A DNA stretch of 59,500 nt from a virus. Location: UHGV virus genome UHGV-0209830, one strand, 5' to 3'. The notes under the pieces were generated by a model. It was not told the DNA's origin, ran no database searches, and saw only the letters and a program-made list of their open reading frames with translations. Every line of letters begins with the position of its first letter. Within the stretch, counting starts at the first letter, position 1. The position numbers and the translations under genes are program-made. Shown piece by piece: positions 4,600-55,755 of this stretch.

Positions 4600-5355
4600 A
4601 TGAACAGAGCGGAATTAACAGCAAAAGCCGTCAGCCTGATTGAGTCAGCGACACCTATTAGTCGTAGTCTGGCACAAGCCAATGAGATCACGGAGGCTGC
4701 TTATCACCTGACTCGCGACCAAAAGCGACTGTTGTTTATTGTGGTGGGAAGACTTCGCTATGCTTCTAAGGATGGCGTTCTTGGTTCAGGTGCCTGTGAG
4801 TTGACGGTCAACGAATATGCAGAGATGTATAATTTGCCCTCTGCTGAAGCCAGCAAGGATATTCGTAAGGCCATTTCAGGGCTTAGCGAGAAGAAAGTTA
4901 CGATATATAACCCTGATGAATCGACCGAATCAGAAGACAGTTATGAGTCTTATCCCTGGATGATTAAGGATGCCTATTCACCACGGCGCGGGACTTACAT
5001 TATTCATCTTAATCCATATCTCATGCCGTTTTTTACTCTGCTTGATAAGAGATTCACAAGGCTGAATTTTACCGAAGTATCTCGCCTTACAAATCCTTAT
5101 TCTATGCGGCTTTATGAGTCCTTATGCCAGTACAGGAAGGATGATGGAAGCGGCTTTGCCATACTTGGCGTCGAATGGATGCGGGAGCGTTATGGGTTAC
5201 CAAAAAGCTATCAGCGGTATGCCGAATTTAAGAGAAGTTTTTTAACGAAGGCTGTAGCAGAGATTGAAAAAAATACAAAAATGAAAATAGTCTTCTCAGA
5301 GGTGACGGAAGGCGGCAAAGTTACCAGGATAAAATTTACCTATCAGCAGTCTTAA
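4600..5355 (+). CDS. repE: Replication initiator, F RepE-like (iteron-binding Rep)
   Basis: Recalled F RepE motifs conserved: EAAY..RDQKR, SAEASKDIR, ESYPWMIK, NPYLMPFF, NPYSMRLYESLCQYRK, LPKSYQRY; track ORF starts 4567 but ATG MNRAEL at 4600 lies after last iteron. Confidence 0.85.
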   Translation: MNRAELTAKAVSLIESATPISRSLAQANEITEAAYHLTRDQKRLLFIVVGRLRYASKDGVLGSGACELTVNEYAEMYNLPSAEASKDIRKAISGLSEKKVTIYNPDESTESEDSYESYPWMIKDAYSPRRGTYIIHLNPYLMPFFTLLDKRFTRLNFTEVSRLTNPYSMRLYESLCQYRKDDGSGFAILGVEWMRERYGLPKSYQRYAEFKRSFLTKAVAEIEKNTKMKIVFSEVTEGGKVTRIKFTYQQS

Positions 5356-5647
5356 GGGCAATTTTTACACCCCTCTCAAGGTGTAGAATTTGCCCTTAAC
5401 GATCGGCAATTGAGGGTAATTTTTACATCTTAATTGCATGTATCTTGTTATTAGCAAGTTGTGTTTTTATATAACGTATTGATATGTAAGGATTATGTAA
5501 AAATCGCCCTCAACCAATATCGTGCGTATCGTGCATTCTTATTGCGCTTTTTTATTATCATTCACTGTGTTAACTGATTGATATTATTGAAATATGTAAA
5601 GAATGCCTTCATTGCTGATGGATTGATGATGTAAAAAATGCCCTCAA
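5353..5647. repeat. Downstream iteron-like repeats in both orientations (incC-like copy-control array)
   Basis: taagggcaatttttacacc, ggtgtagaatttgccctta, tgagggtaatttttacatc, atgtaaaaatcgccctca, gatgtaaaaaatgccctca interspersed with AT-rich DNA. Confidence 0.7.
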
Positions 5648-50882: not shown

Positions 50883-51274
50883 TACCAGCGAGACAAACGA
50901 ACAACATGTTTCACTTTTGCGATCCACTTTCCGCGACAACTATTGATTACGGCCTGTGCCAGCTTCAAATTGGCTTCAAAATCAGCCTTACTACCATCTG
51001 ACTCCACCAGCATTCCGCCATCTATTTCTGGTAAACATAGATAATCCTGCTCAACCTGCAGCGGCATTGATGGCTCTCTGAATGGCGTTACTTGCTCTGC
51101 TTTCCAGCGAAAGCTAACCCTCATCCCCCTGGTGGTCATTACCAGATAGCCTGTTATAGTGCTTTTATGGCCCACATCAGTACGCGTGGCATTGCATGAC
51201 ACGATCTTACAGTTAGCGATAGACCACTCCATATTGGTGGCCTGTTGAGTGCTTAATTTGGTAGTCCCGTACAT
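50882..51274 (-). CDS. Hypothetical protein (130 aa)
   Basis: ORF track. Confidence 0.45.
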   Translation of the reverse strand: MYGTTKLSTQQATNMEWSIANCKIVSCNATRTDVGHKSTITGYLVMTTRGMRVSFRWKAEQVTPFREPSMPLQVEQDYLCLPEIDGGMLVESDGSKADFEANLKLAQAVINSCRGKWIAKVKHVVRLSRW

Positions 51275-51849
51275 CAGAAAGCCTCCCAGTCAGTCGCGAT
51301 AATATCCACACCAGTTGCAAACCAGTCTGTCTGCGCCTGTAAATCACCATTCATCATTACCAGGCGAGGCATCACCATCACATCGCACCCTTCCACAATA
51401 TCGAATGCCTCTTCCGGCAAGAATTCGAAGAGCTTTTCTTTGCTGCCAATGCTGCCACGGAACATCGATATATAGCTCCCTTTAGGCCATGATGTCCGCC
51501 GGGCATCAAGCCCTTTCATCATCCAGTAAAAAGCCGAGGAAAAAGGGATATTCTTTTTGCCAATGATTACATTATTCGCTTCTGTGTACTTCAGGAACTT
51601 AACTAACCTTACCATTGACTCGGATAACGCAACGTATGGCTCATGATTGATTGCTGACACGCTTACACCGTGCAATCCAACGCTTACCACTGTCATATCG
51701 CCGCTCTGTGCGGTTTCGATATTGACGCCTTTGCGAACTAATGAGGCGTAAAGTTCCTCTCGCTTTTGGGTCCAGCGTTCCCGCTTCCCTATGAAGTCAC
51801 TCAAAATGAGATCTTCTTCTGCATATGCGTTATCGTTCGCCATTAACAT
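51274..51849 (-). CDS. Hypothetical protein (191 aa)
   Basis: ORF track; strong RBS aaaaaggag. Confidence 0.5.
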   Translation of the reverse strand: MLMANDNAYAEEDLILSDFIGKRERWTQKREELYASLVRKGVNIETAQSGDMTVVSVGLHGVSVSAINHEPYVALSESMVRLVKFLKYTEANNVIIGKKNIPFSSAFYWMMKGLDARRTSWPKGSYISMFRGSIGSKEKLFEFLPEEAFDIVEGCDVMVMPRLVMMNGDLQAQTDWFATGVDIIATDWEAF

Positions 51850-51969
51850 AACGTCTCCTTTTTACACACGCGACCATCTCTCGGTTAAACCGATAGAGAT
51901 GTCGAAACTTCGTATTAATTAAGGGTTACAGCCTGAGCGGCTATATGATGAATTGAAAGGAGTTGTGGC

Positions 51970-51984
51970 GGTGGTGCCTCCACC
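51970..51984. other. Conserved-loop hairpin, copy A (ggtgg-tgcct-ccacc)
   Basis: One of three hairpins with identical loop and covarying stems. Confidence 0.5.
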
Positions 51985-52302
51985 TGCCAGGTTAGCCACT
52001 CCTGGCGACGTCACTTATCAGAACGTAGTGAATGAAAATGGCTTCGTCACGAGCGCATAGCCGCAATTACCACAACGGAAACGGCGCTCGCGTTAATTAA
52101 ACGCCTTTTCCTGTTGTGCGCCGTACTCTTCCGGCTGTCACACCGAATCGCCAGGGTGGTGAGTCCTCGGTCCGACGATATGAACGGGGCTTGCACATTC
52201 CGGCTACCTGGTTTGTTGCCTGAGCAAGGGGAAAAGGTAACCCCTTTAACGTCACCAGACCGCTAACGACGCATGTGCCATACGCCGTGTTACAACCAAA
52301 TA

Positions 52303-52378
52303 TGGTGGCCCCTACCGGACTTGAACCGGTGACCGTGCGATTATGAGTCGCCAGCTCTAACCACTGAGCTAAAGGGCC
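52303..52378 (-). tRNA. tRNA with CAT anticodon, tRNA-Ile2 (lysidine) type
   Basis: 76 nt cloverleaf with encoded CCA; anticodon loop CTCATAA; near-identical to recalled E. coli ileX; Met not excluded. Confidence 0.8.
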
Positions 52379-52532
52379 AGATTACTGTTAATTCCGCTTA
52401 CGCTTTTTGCCAGGACCGCGTAAGGCTTTTGCTGCTTGCTCGACCCCATATGCAACCACCAGCAGAAATAAAAATGTCCACCAAGGGTTCTTGTCGGCAA
52501 ACGTCCAAAATTCCATCATGTTCTCTATTTGG

Positions 52533-53360
52533 TTATTTCACCGGAACAAACGGTACAGCGGTATTACTGGTCATATACTGCGGTAGCGTTCCGTTCCATT
52601 TGTTGATCGCTTCCAACTCCATAACGCCGGGGTTCTGGCGCAGAGCTTCACCGCGTAAACGAATGGCATCAGCTTCAGCCTGGGCTTTTGTGCGAATGGC
52701 ATCGGCCTGTCCGGCAGCTTCTGCGCGCAGCATGTTGGCTTCTGCTTCGCGTTGCTTGACTTCCTGCTCGCGTTGCAGAGTTTTCTGGTTCGCCGTGACT
52801 TTGGCATTAATGCTGTCGATAACGGTTGGCGGGTACTCCGGCTTGCCCACATATGAGAGGCTCATTACCTGAATACCGATGGGCGTCATTTCTTCCTGGA
52901 TGTCTTTAAGAGCTGCATCCAGTAGTTCAGACTTGCCACCGTCGATAAATTTGTCGGTGGTCATTTTGCTGGCCAGTCGGTTAAGTGCGTCGGCAATCTT
53001 CTGGCGCAGGTCGGTGTCGGTAATGTCATCCACGCCTTTGCGGTAGGTCTGAAATACAGTTGTGACTTTTGCCGGATCAACCTTGTAAGCTACACCAATG
53101 TGGTAACCAATTGTTGTCCCGTCGCTCATTTGGAAGCTGAACGGATCATCATAGGTCTTCATTTGCTTAAAGGTCGGGAAGATATAAACTTCTGTGTTCC
53201 AGCCTGTCCAGTAGCGACCAACGCCAACTACTTCGCCGACACCTTTATCATCCCCCAGCTTATTTACTTTGATCCCTACATTGCCTGGTTCTACCCGGTC
53301 GCATCCGGTCAGACATAAAGAACCAAAAATAATCGCTGCACTAATCAACGTTTTTTTCAT
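52533..53360 (-). CDS. SPFH/band-7 domain lipoprotein
   Basis: Lipobox LTGC signal; SPFH-like core followed by A/E/Q-rich coiled coil. Confidence 0.55.
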   Translation of the reverse strand: MKKTLISAAIIFGSLCLTGCDRVEPGNVGIKVNKLGDDKGVGEVVGVGRYWTGWNTEVYIFPTFKQMKTYDDPFSFQMSDGTTIGYHIGVAYKVDPAKVTTVFQTYRKGVDDITDTDLRQKIADALNRLASKMTTDKFIDGGKSELLDAALKDIQEEMTPIGIQVMSLSYVGKPEYPPTVIDSINAKVTANQKTLQREQEVKQREAEANMLRAEAAGQADAIRTKAQAEADAIRLRGEALRQNPGVMELEAINKWNGTLPQYMTSNTAVPFVPVK

Positions 53361-53578
53361 TAATCAATTTCCTGGATTTTTTTGCGAAAAAAGACTACTG
53401 CAAAAGCCGGGTAAATGAGCGCGAGAAGGACTCCCAACAATACAAGTATTGTGCTGTCAGATGAGATCATATTTGGCAAAAGCCAAACATACAGAACCAT
53501 TGACACAATCAAACAGAGGACGACATAAATATATAGCCGCACCCATAGCGTTCGACATTTGTTCGGATTGTTCTGCAT
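53360..53578 (-). CDS. Small two-TM membrane protein (72 aa)
   Basis: ORF track; stop overlaps start of SPFH gene. Confidence 0.45.
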   Translation of the reverse strand: MQNNPNKCRTLWVRLYIYVVLCLIVSMVLYVWLLPNMISSDSTILVLLGVLLALIYPAFAVVFFRKKIQEID

Positions 53579-53618
53579 CCTCTCACTCCATTGTTTAACG
53601 AATAAAAAAGCTGCGGTG

Positions 53619-53633
53619 CCTGGTGCCTCCAGG
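53619..53633. other. Conserved-loop hairpin, copy B (cctgg-tgcct-ccagg)
   Basis: Same loop as copies A and C, stem covaries; about 45 bp upstream of small membrane gene. Confidence 0.5.
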
Positions 53634-53841
53634 TGACGTTAACCAGTTAACAATTAACGCCGGGATGTTTGATTTAACCACTAATAAGGATTGTTTTAAC
53701 TGTTCCGCGTGCGCTTAGCCGCATTCACCGCAATGGTAAGAGCACTTGGCTGGCTGGGCGGCGATGACGCCTGTACGCATTTGGTGATCCGGTTCTGCTT
53801 CCGGCATTCGCTTAATTAGCCAAATACTCTTAACGTTGCGC

Positions 53842-53928
53842 TGGCGGAGAGTAATGGAATCGAACCATCATCGCTTGCGCAATGGGACGGTTTTCAAGAC
53901 CGCTTGAGCACCATGCTCCCTACTCTCC
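53842..53928 (-). tRNA. Atypical type-II tRNA-like gene with TGA anticodon (tRNA-Ser(UGA)-like)
   Basis: 87 nt; acceptor GGAGAGT/ACTCTCC, G discriminator, CCA, T-loop TTCGATT, anticodon loop CTTGAAA; D-arm shortened and variable arm irregular. Confidence 0.45.
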
Positions 53929-54393
53929 GGCCGTTGTGGTGGCCGGTACTGAATCTCCGGCATACGGTGCAGCCAATTAGGACTACGGACGATCACCGCT
54001 CGCGAAAGGGAAGATTTGCGGCCGCATTTCCCTAACATCCAAGAAAGCTATCGCATCAGTCTGCGAATCCACCACAACGTTGAGAACACTGGTTGTCACG
54101 CTGCCTCGCGACCTTTATTCATAGATTGGGATATGACCCCGTTACGCCAATGTTCTCAACGTTGTAGTGCCGGTTACGGTTCCGGCCAGGCTTCTTCCTC
54201 AACGGGGTGTTCTCCATACGGACTACCGTTTATTGGTCGTTCCTGCGGTTTATGTTGTGAAGCCAGATGCTTATCTTCTGGTTGCTTCAAAGAGCTGCAC
54301 TTCATCACAACGGTAAGGGTACTTCGTAGGGATTCGAACCCTCTGCCAAGCTCGGCGATCTCCGACGTCGCAAAATACCCTTACCTGTTGTGT

Positions 54394-54469
54394 TGGTGCC
54401 GGTTAACGGACTCGAACCGCTGACATCCTGCTTACAAGGCAGGCGCTCTACCAACTGAGCTAAACCGGC
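54394..54469 (-). tRNA. tRNA-Thr (TGT anticodon)
   Basis: 76 nt cloverleaf, anticodon loop CTTGTAA, T-loop TTCGAGT, encoded CCA. Confidence 0.8.
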
Positions 54470-54471
54470 AT

Positions 54472-54547
54472 TGGCGATGGTGGATGGATTTGAACCATCG
54501 ACCCGTTGATTAACAGTCAACCGCTCTAACCGCTGAGCTACACCATC
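54472..54547 (-). tRNA. tRNA-Asn (GTT anticodon)
   Basis: 76 nt cloverleaf, anticodon loop CTGTTAA, T-loop TTCAAAT, encoded CCA. Confidence 0.8.
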
Positions 54548-55257
54548 ACTTGCCGGGTACGTCTCCGGCGAGGGCTTCCACCTCCGTATGCTTTTCGGCG
54601 CACCGCGCCCTGGCTGCAATTCGGTAACAGGGGATGCATAACCCTGGCTTCCAGCGTGATTAGCGCCTTCAGCATGACGGGATATACCCGTTGCAAGACA
54701 TTATCCCAGAAAGCCATTAACCAATGGCTGTTACGCGGGAGGGACGTAACAGGTAAGGGCGCTGACCAGAAAGACCTGACCCTTCTCATTCATCTGGTTA
54801 ATCACACCAGCGCCCTTGCCTGTTATGCCTCCCCGTTCCCTAATACACAGACGGGGACACTCTGCGGTCGATTTTTTGACGGGGGACGACTCATACCCCG
54901 TGGCGTCAGGCTTCTTAGGCCGCTACCATCATCAGATCATCGTTTGCATTTACTTTAATGGTCGGTTTCTAAACCGCCGCAAAGTCGCTAACCATGACGA
55001 AAACCCTAAAAAAGCCCACCCGAAGATGGGCAAATACGCTACGTATCACACAAGAAAGAAGCCGACTGCCTGAACTGGATTCACTTTCAAATGCCCGCTG
55101 AAAGGGATCACAAGTCGGCTTCTTTCTTGATGCGGCACTCTCTCCGCCCGTCACCGCTCTGTCTCGGTTGTCGCGTTTGCCACGCCAGCCATAACGAGGT
55201 TTAAAGTCTTTGCACGTTCCCATCACTCGACTGCCGTCTGAGGCTGTTCGTTGCAGC

Positions 55258-55272
55258 GGGGGTGCCTCCCCC
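55258..55272. other. Conserved-loop hairpin, copy C (ggggg-tgcct-ccccc)
   Basis: Same loop, third stem variant. Confidence 0.5.
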
Positions 55273-55755
55273 TGGGGATATCCCCGGCCTTACCCCATTC
55301 TTTCAAGACACAATGCAAGGCCACATCCGCATAGGTGCATTACCGCAACATTAAGGAGGCATAGGGCGGTTACCTTTTGCCCTGAGTCTCCTTAATGTTG
55401 AAGATGTGCATTGATGATTAGATGCAGCATGTACCGTTACTCTCTGCCGGACCATCATCAATGAACACCTTAAAAAGACCTTCCGTGGCTCAACATGGAC
55501 TGTCGTTTACTCCGCAAAGTGCTCTCTCTGAAACCACTTTCCGCACTAAACCTGCTGAACTTTGGCCTGCACGGTGCCAAAGCGTGCTCTTGCATTGCTA
55601 TACTTTTCTAACGCTTTAATTTGTTAAATGCTGGTGGGCGAACAATAACCAATAAGTGACTATCAAGCCCAGCAAGCGAAACGTGGGTGCCGCCCACCAG
55701 CAAGGAAAATTCTATGTTAAGTTACCTTCACAATCAATACGTTCGAATCGTAATT

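Follow-up and report, generated by a model that had tools for sequence, protein, structure and literature searches.

The prophage small RNA (sRNA) STnc100 (Rfam RF02076) is, in its canonical form, a free sRNA composed of its own promoter, a structured domain, a linker of about 25–30 nucleotides (nt) and a terminator. Its place in Stx2 phages is the late operon, where it starts 105 nt downstream of stx2B. Eleven transcribed copies of the family are known from EDL933, one of which was confirmed by Northern blot (PMC5331693), and a copy located downstream of stx2B is overlapped by EcOnc27/sRNA103, an sRNA which binds Hfq (PMC12711010). In a survey of bacteria STnc100 ranks among the sRNA annotations of highest abundance and has no assigned function (PMC9029176), and according to a preprint PasD shares structure and ancestry with STnc100 (bioRxiv 10.64898/2026.05.13.724894). 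The present analysis concerns three hairpins in the transfer RNA (tRNA) island of the virus genome UHGV-0209830, which was analysed as one stretch of 59,500 nt, called the window below. As judged from sequence and structure comparison, they are part of a domain which very probably is the conserved core of the STnc100 family.

The hairpins and the domain containing them

By its sequence the window is a phage-plasmid which resembles D6 and is related to P1. Over the 5 kb surrounding the hairpins the identity to Escherichia phage D6, itself a plasmid prophage related to P1, amounts to 97.7%; the phages P1, P7, RCS47 and SJ46 are more distant kin. ARAGORN finds tRNA-Met, -Ser, -Thr and -Asn in the island, all on the minus strand, and all credible open reading frames (ORFs) between 49 and 57 kb lie on this strand, too. 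The hairpins are therefore read as minus-strand RNA of the form CA-stem-AGGCA-stem, namely GGUGG-AGGCA-CCACC (hairpin 1, 51970–51984), CCUGG-AGGCA-CCAGG (hairpin 2, 53619–53633) and GGGGG-AGGCA-CCCCC (hairpin 3, 55258–55272), which correspond on the plus strand to ggtgg-tgcct-ccacc-tg (51970–51986), cctgg-tgcct-ccagg-tg (53619–53635) and ggggg-tgcct-ccccc-tg (55258–55274). A first-pass annotation had noted three perfect hairpins of 5 base pairs (bp) with one shared pentaloop at these sites, and the sequence bears this out. The 9-mer GGTGCCTCC occurs exactly three times in the 59.5 kb, always on the plus strand and always inside one 3.3-kb stretch. In 1000 dinucleotide-preserving shuffles of the window, perfect Watson-Crick 5-bp hairpins around this loop were encountered with a mean of 0.151 and a maximum of two per window, none of the shuffles containing three; when the flanking CA/TG was demanded in addition, the mean was 0.007. 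As the looser pattern TGCCTNNNNNTG (TGCCT-N5-TG) is present at chance level (seven found versus nine expected), the significance of the hairpins comes from the pairing. Phage D6 carries these three copies as well. A literature search with the motif string returned unrelated primer matches only.

The hairpins are no 15-nt units standing on their own. Each proved to be the terminal helix of a domain of 100–125 nt which is closed by a long-range stem, and sequence comparison identifies them as helix P5 of three diverged paralogous copies of one minus-strand structured RNA domain, called E1, E2 and E3. Each copy folds alone into one common multi-helix shape. The 5' and 3' ends of the domain form a closing stem of 7–9 bp, helix P1, which is followed by a joiner of 3–4 nt, (G)AAU, by the short hairpin P2 with a conserved loop, and by a variable middle and the P4 hairpin. 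Helix P5 stacks directly on P1, with zero nucleotides between P5 and the 3' strand of P1, and the almost invariant sequence GGAGGCACC spans the P5 loop.

Two models, R1, which included the window copies, and R2, were used for scoring. R2 was built from 109 copies in other genera, without any window or D6 sequence; these came from a pattern scan of one genome per species which yielded 80 loci, almost all of them in Enterobacterales. Run over the whole window at E ≤ 10, R2 reported only E2, E1 and E3, all at full length and with E ≤ 1e-8. E1 (115 nt, 51962–52076, minus strand) is an STnc100-type domain recognised by its fold, both models and its homologues; it has helix P1 GUUGUGGU/GCCACAAC and scores of 73 bits with R1 and 45.1 bits with R2 (E 9e-9). 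E2 (121–125 nt, 53610–53734, minus strand), with helix P1 UGCGGUG/CACCGCA, is recognised by the Rfam STnc100 model as well as by R1 (114.8 bits) and R2 (91.1 bits). E3 (100 nt, 55250–55349, minus strand) has helix P1 GUUGCGGU/GCUGCAAC and was identified by its fold, R1 (62.4 bits) and R2 (44.9 bits, E 9e-9). The stems GGUGG and GGGGG of E1 and E3 and the P1/P5 junction, which is one base shorter in these two copies, are both uncommon in the family, the GGUGG form being found in one of the 109 copies.

According to these comparisons the island holds four members of the family, the fourth being degenerate and weakly matching. This divergent copy, E4 (53932–54078, minus strand), was detected as a weak match to R1 with filters off (14 bits, E 0.012, full-length alignment) and folds into the same architecture as E1 to E3, with helix P1 GUUGUGGUGG/CCACCACAAC and P5 GCCGG-AGAUUCAGUA-CCGGC. 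A gap of 3 nt separates it from the 5' end of tRNA-Ser, which follows. The identity of the loop reported at first sight consequently holds for three copies and not for the fourth, in which the P5 loop has 10 nt. The subtype of E4, with the P5 loop AG(A/U)UCAGCA, is also present in phage P1, in a D6-like plasmid of Escherichia fergusonii and in phage SopranoGao.

The domain is constrained in its structure at the RNA level and on a single strand, and this strand is not in doubt. In an alignment of 18 sequences 95.6% of the cells are paired, as compared to 77% in shuffles and 29–49% in slid controls, and 12 pairs show compensatory changes. The alignment of the 109 copies has 96.0% of its cells paired and compensatory changes in 17 of 22 pairs, values which were reached by none of 500 shuffles. 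The covariation statistics proposed for the hairpins have thus come out in favour of pairing, with the restriction that within the stems of the three hairpins the outer three pairs covary and the inner two (GG/CC) are invariant. G-U pairs are frequent, and this solely in the minus-strand reading; E2 scores 114.8 bits with R1 on the minus strand versus 6.2 bits on the plus strand; and every copy is co-oriented with its flanking genes. From the earlier suggestion of a structure acting as RNA or as single-stranded DNA the RNA part can be retained, the single-stranded DNA part being without support. A tertiary kissing contact joining the loops of P2 (UGC) and P5 (GCA) was considered as well; loop variants (AAGCA in phage P1; UAGCG and CAGCA) come without a matching change in P2, and the contact is unsupported either way.

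At the gathering threshold Rfam reports three tRNAs only in the window. A permissive scan matched positions 53612–53732 of the minus strand to model positions 31–147 of STnc100 with 40.4 bits (E ~2e-7). This alignment of E2 contains hairpin 2 as the consensus CCGGGAGGCACCCGG with CACCAug directly behind it, the pairing partner of a caUGGUG some 110 nt upstream. The AGGCA hairpin is therefore no new motif, as CCGGG-AGGCA-CCCGG is already part of the Rfam consensus. The window copies share with the STnc100 core (model positions 31–147) the closing stem, the GGUGAAU joiner, P2, the penultimate hairpin and the terminal GGAGGCACC hairpin stacked on the closing stem, as well as the prophage habitat and the orientation relative to the operon. 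Homology is further indicated by R2, a model free of window and D6 sequence whose alignment had been fitted by R1. They differ from STnc100 in having no 5' flank, no linker and Rho-independent terminator (model positions 148–206) and no promoter of their own: no promoter box is found at the canonical position (−10 box ending 4–7 nt before P1) of the window copies, and a terminator scan detected no adjacent terminator after E1 or E2, the nearest one to E3 being 218 nt downstream. E2-type copies from D6, P7, Rac and mEp460 score 39–44 bits on the Rfam model, compared to 83–208 bits for canonical copies of Stx phages, so with a cut-off of 47 this model misses most embedded copies. PasD1 and PasD2 of enteropathogenic Escherichia coli, which bind Hfq and lie beside the antiterminator Q gene, resemble the window copies, by description, in occurring as multiple diverged copies per genome, and differ from them in being free sRNAs with described seed regions.

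Genomic contexts of the family

The STnc100/PasD prophage family is very common in enteric bacteria. By BLAST, homologues of E2 were found in P7, in Rac-type and Qin-type lambdoid phages, in Stx phages and in Klebsiella phages, homologues of E1 with 68–79% identity in the Klebsiella phages LASTA and SopranoGao and in Escherichia phage LLS, and E3 only in D6-like plasmids. An E2-like sequence is present in 4682 of 5426 complete E. coli genomes (86%), with a median of two and up to nine copies; the matches that were sampled are all without an RNA annotation in RefSeq. In E. coli K-12 (NC_000913.3) two unannotated copies fill the spacer between dicF and dicB in Qin (~1649454–1649581; L016 2955–3082; 100.6 bits) and the spacer between kilS and kilR in Rac (~1418262–1418390; L017 3763–3891; 88.2 bits), ending about 28–32 nt before the start codon of the respective toxic gene. 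The domain is not described in the accessible literature on dicBF and kilS/KilS.

Starts of unrelated genes follow the E2-type copies at a distance of 28–38 nt, namely those of upl in the window, tciA/terB in D6 and P7, kilR, and dicB. In the window the 3' end of E2 lies 33 nt upstream of the upl start codon (53578) and that of E1 112 nt upstream of the orf6 start codon (51849). Counted from the hairpins, hairpin 2 ends 41 bp and hairpin 1 121 bp before these starts, which agrees with the 45–120 bp given initially for two of the copies. The homology of the window with D6, P7 and the E. fergusonii plasmid is lost precisely where E2 has its 3' end (53612) and is regained at tRNA-Met, so that a swappable cassette lies between E2 and this tRNA. 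In this interval (52384–53612) the window has upl, a SPFH/Band-7 lipoprotein gene (plp) and an ORF of 43 amino acids in place of the tciA(TerB)/tciB found in D6, P7 and the E. fergusonii plasmid.

E1-type and E4-type copies can sit 3–6 nt before tRNA genes, as found for E4 and tRNA-Ser, for tRNA-Arg of LASTA and for tRNA-Met of C. braakii. Arrays of three to six copies occur in Pantoea and Superficieibacter, with some spacers of only 10–20 nt. Four to six diverged tandem copies were seen in Pantoea genomes and a plasmid (L093 4137–4755 and 5821–5927; L082 6400–7018; L087 2064–3601; L057 949–1989), and one Pantoea array adjoins a tRNA-like gene with a 4-nt 'anticodon'. In 55 of 108 copies from other genera a −10 box precedes P1, its end being 4 or 7 nt away, against a background of about 2–3 per position, and about 29% of the 109 copies are followed by a strict terminator at a median distance of 25 nt.

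The island itself contains a lone sigma-70-like match, TTGATT-17-TAGAAT (55709–55737, minus strand), upstream of E3. By consensus match it is a candidate promoter and a candidate start of the island transcript. The only good terminator of the island, the hairpin GCCCAUCUUCGGGUGGGC followed by U6 (55014–55031, minus strand), is located 218 nt after E3, within a stretch homologous to the annotated 'dicF-like region' of phage P1. It is preceded by a long hairpin, AAGAAAGAAGCCGACU...AGUCGGCUUCUUUCUU (55008–55130 including the terminator GCCCAUCUUCGGGUGGGC-U6, minus strand), which is overlapped by an ORF of 85 amino acids (54969–55226) that is probably non-coding. The terminator resembles the DicF-like tail behind an E domain in phage LLS. 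An identity of the tail after E3 with DicF was not accepted, as the Rfam DicF model has no match in the window and the likeness consists of the terminator and the 'dicF-like region' of phage P1.

Several other structured elements were observed in the island. At 53842–53928 (minus strand) ARAGORN calls a tRNA-Ser(UGA), for which the best Rfam model is tRNA-Sec with 46.6 bits versus a cut-off of 47; the annotators of D6 likewise called this tRNA-Ser atypical. A tRNA-like sequence at 54316–54385 (minus strand), which has a canonical T-arm GGGUUCGAAUCCC within a 10-bp stem GGUAAGGGUA/UACCCUUACC, is not called a tRNA by ARAGORN or Rfam, and phage LASTA has a comparable odd tRNA-like element. Near-perfect hairpins of 16–21 bp with the bases CACAAC...GUUGUG are found at 54070–54170, 53735–53835, 52070–52115 and 54305–54390 on the minus strand. 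Their 3' GUUGUG overlaps the 5' strand of helix P1 of the adjoining E domain, so that the two pairings exclude each other: in the window, in LASTA and in LLS the 5' strand GUUGUGG of P1 can alternatively pair with the upstream CACAAC, an alternative not seen in lambdoid copies. These long hairpins may be RNase III sites or switches. Immediately upstream of E3, a 36-bp segment (55365–55400) lies between the 10-bp inverted repeats CATTAAGGAG and CTCCTTAATG (~55351–55410). In D6 this segment is inverted, with 100% identity to the reverse complement, which keeps the hairpin stem and flips the loop; a 9-bp indel is a further difference of D6 at this site.

The first gene after E1, orf6 (51274–51849, minus strand), precedes orf5 and lpa and encodes a Thoeris anti-defence Tad2-like domain (Pfam PF11195, E 1e-9); its E. 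fergusonii homologue is labelled 'MW1434 family type I TA system toxin' by RefSeq. In phage P1 (AF234172; L001 5160–5729) the annotated upl and plp ORFs run on the strand opposite to the operon and overlap tRNA-Thr and an E4-type domain (5283–5384, 20 bits) on the operon strand, for which reasons these two ORF calls may be spurious.

Possible roles of the embedded copies

The best overall explanation, for which a probability of about 0.7 is estimated, is that the hairpins mark embedded copies of an STnc100-type domain in a minus-strand transcript of the island, a role in cis being the favoured one among several readings. The host transcript would be a long and mostly untranslated RNA which carries the tRNAs and accessory genes of the phage-plasmid. 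The domain is predicted to fold autonomously and to be recognised by a host factor at the invariant loops of P5 and P2. It has been kept in unrelated phages (P1-like, lambdoid, Lastavirus), its loops being fixed while the stems covary, which would fit either the binding of such a factor or a tertiary contact. The window copies would then serve as a stable structured 5' head, or as a processing boundary, for the RNA behind them, which is the DicF-like terminator-ended RNA for E3, tRNA-Ser for E4, the upl-plp mRNA for E2 and the orf6(Tad2-like)-orf5-lpa mRNA for E1. A role in cis is favoured by the lack of a promoter and an adjacent terminator together with the position just before other RNA units; the location of E2-type copies before the starts of unrelated genes and the break of homology exactly at the 3' end of E2 speak for it, too. 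The mechanism itself, a cis-acting stabiliser or processing boundary, is proposed tentatively, and the odds are against its being right in this particular form.

A number of points weigh against this explanation. With its 40.4 bits E2 stays under the Rfam gathering score of 47 and thereby outside formal membership, and for E1 and E3 the Rfam scan gives no match up to E ≤ 5. The alignment behind R2 was gathered with a pattern demanding GGAGGCACC and the P2 motif and was fitted by R1, and the 109 sequences are related to one another, so that the P5 loop and the P2 motif appear more conserved than they are and some of the pair statistics come out too high. The copies of D6 are known from sequence alone. 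A stabiliser in cis leaves unexplained the Pantoea arrays of four to six copies with spacers of 10–20 nt and the copies 3–6 nt before tRNAs, which suggests that the domain has an intrinsic function of its own not captured by any of the readings listed here. Finally, roughly every second one of the 109 copies from other genera is preceded at 4–7 nt by a −10 box of its own and, accordingly, the family generally behaves as free sRNA genes.

It appears rather doubtful that the copies are excised from a polycistronic RNA to act in trans as Hfq-dependent base-pairing sRNAs, as reported for STnc100, EcOnc27 and PasD. Canonical members do combine promoter, domain, linker (median 25 nt) and terminator, for EcOnc27 and PasD there are reports of Hfq binding and of distinct target sets, and E3 is followed by a terminator-ended DicF-like tail as in phage LLS. 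However, Hfq-class sRNAs normally need a terminator or U-tail, whereas E1 and E2 have neither and run directly into ribosome-binding sites; furthermore, the copies have no conserved seed region in common, and of their single-stranded bases only those in the P5 and P2 loops are invariant. Less probable still are tRNA-shaped processing signals, cut by RNase P or other tRNA maturation enzymes to punctuate the island transcript. The C4 RNA of P1 and P7 is matured by RNase P, and P1 (7–8 bp) and P5 (5 bp) form a contiguous stack of 12–13 bp, as the acceptor and T arms do in tRNAs, and the helices are ordered (P1-P2-P3-P4-P5) as in a class II tRNA cloverleaf; in the window, LASTA and C. braakii a tRNA gene begins 3–6 nt behind a copy, and tRNA-like tandem arrays occur. 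This likeness is confined to helix topology and the P1/P5 stack: ARAGORN finds no tRNA at E1 to E4, the Rfam tRNA model has no match there at E ≤ 5, the P5 loop has 5 nt instead of the 7 nt of a T-loop, and no conserved 3' NCCA is found behind the domain. Many copies, moreover, begin at their own promoter and hence need no 5' processing. The T4 species 1 and 2 RNAs, stable structured RNAs of about 120–140 nt which are co-transcribed with phage tRNAs and have no known function, offer an analogy of context only.

Processive antitermination or anti-Rho elements acting in cis, like HK022 put, EAR or nut, could help transcription across the terminators and untranslated stretches of the island. The boxB of a lambda-type nut site acts as nascent RNA and is, like P5, a pentaloop on a 5-bp stem, the stem differing between the copies of one phage and the loop being kept; the elements lie in long untranslated operons with intrinsic terminators, E3 precedes the terminator at 55031–55014, and the LLS element is situated just after PL and before a terminator. 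HK022 put is likewise a cis RNA of early phage operons downstream of PL-type promoters and needs no phage protein. Such a function is nevertheless very improbable. The loop AGGCA is unlike the GNRA-like boxB loops GAAAA or GACAA, and the hairpin is buried in a larger fold; put has about 70 nt with two stem-loops in a V shape, no closing stem and no sequence similarity to the domain. A lambda-type nut site, with free boxA CGCUCUUA, boxB and an N-type protein, was not found. The sole boxA-like string, UGCUCUUA (~53745), is located 5 nt upstream of E2 and thus about 110 nt upstream of the hairpin, lies inside a predicted long stem and is not conserved beside other copies, and no N gene was identified in the window, where no dedicated search was made. 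In Rac and Qin the DicF terminator precedes the element, and free-standing copies end at their own terminators. Even less can be said for sites acting at the DNA level, such as protein-binding palindromes, recombination sites at cassette boundaries or single-strand initiation signals. The exchange of upl-plp for tciA-tciB begins exactly at the 3' edge of E2 and copies are found at mosaic junctions in many phages, but recombination at such junctions is more simply a by-product of conserved sequence; the arms vary with the loop fixed, G-U pairs occur in one strand only, the conserved unit is an RNA fold of 100–125 nt with long-range covariation, and members of the family, which possess promoters and terminators, have been seen as RNA. 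Rho-independent terminators, finally, can practically be discounted: the hairpins are short and GC-rich, and in the window a U6 run is found 9 nt after E2, but this run is absent in D6, no U-tract directly abuts any of the three stems as in an intrinsic terminator, and the terminator scan does not call them.

Some further candidates were rejected. For a Lpa-type late promoter or a sigma-70 promoter at the hairpins there is no suitably spaced −10 box, the scan finding only the match at 55737–55709. Hairpin promoters of the N4 type need a 3-nt loop, whereas the loop is 5 nt here, and the genome is not N4-like. Sequestration of the downstream ribosome-binding site by an anti-Shine-Dalgarno sequence was dismissed, as neither a conserved CCUCC nor an anti-ribosome-binding-site segment is present.

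A more general proposal, itself unlikely, is that the domain is the functional unit itself, a tRNA-shaped RNA whose invariant GGAGGCACC and P2 loops would bind a host protein or RNA. It might then work as a decoy or sponge, as a substrate of a maturation enzyme or as a new cis-regulator, and would be deployed as free genes, in tandem arrays, beside tRNAs and in the leaders of genes with toxic or anti-defence products, among them kilR, dicB, terB and a Tad2-like gene.

Implications for the family

The element belongs to a described family and is thus of an already known kind. New with respect to annotation and accessible literature are the embedded form without a promoter, the divergent subtypes of E1, E3 and E4 which are missed by the Rfam model, and the copies in the dicB and kilR leaders of K-12, two well-studied toxic loci. 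In the window, 3.4 kb of seemingly 'empty' DNA of the tRNA island have become a series of recognisable RNA modules, and the structural definition of the domain (P1–P5, invariant loops) together with the collected contexts makes the function of the family testable. If the domain should indeed be a functional unit in its own right, it would represent an uncharacterised and near-universal element of E. coli prophages, including the dicBF and kilR leaders of K-12.

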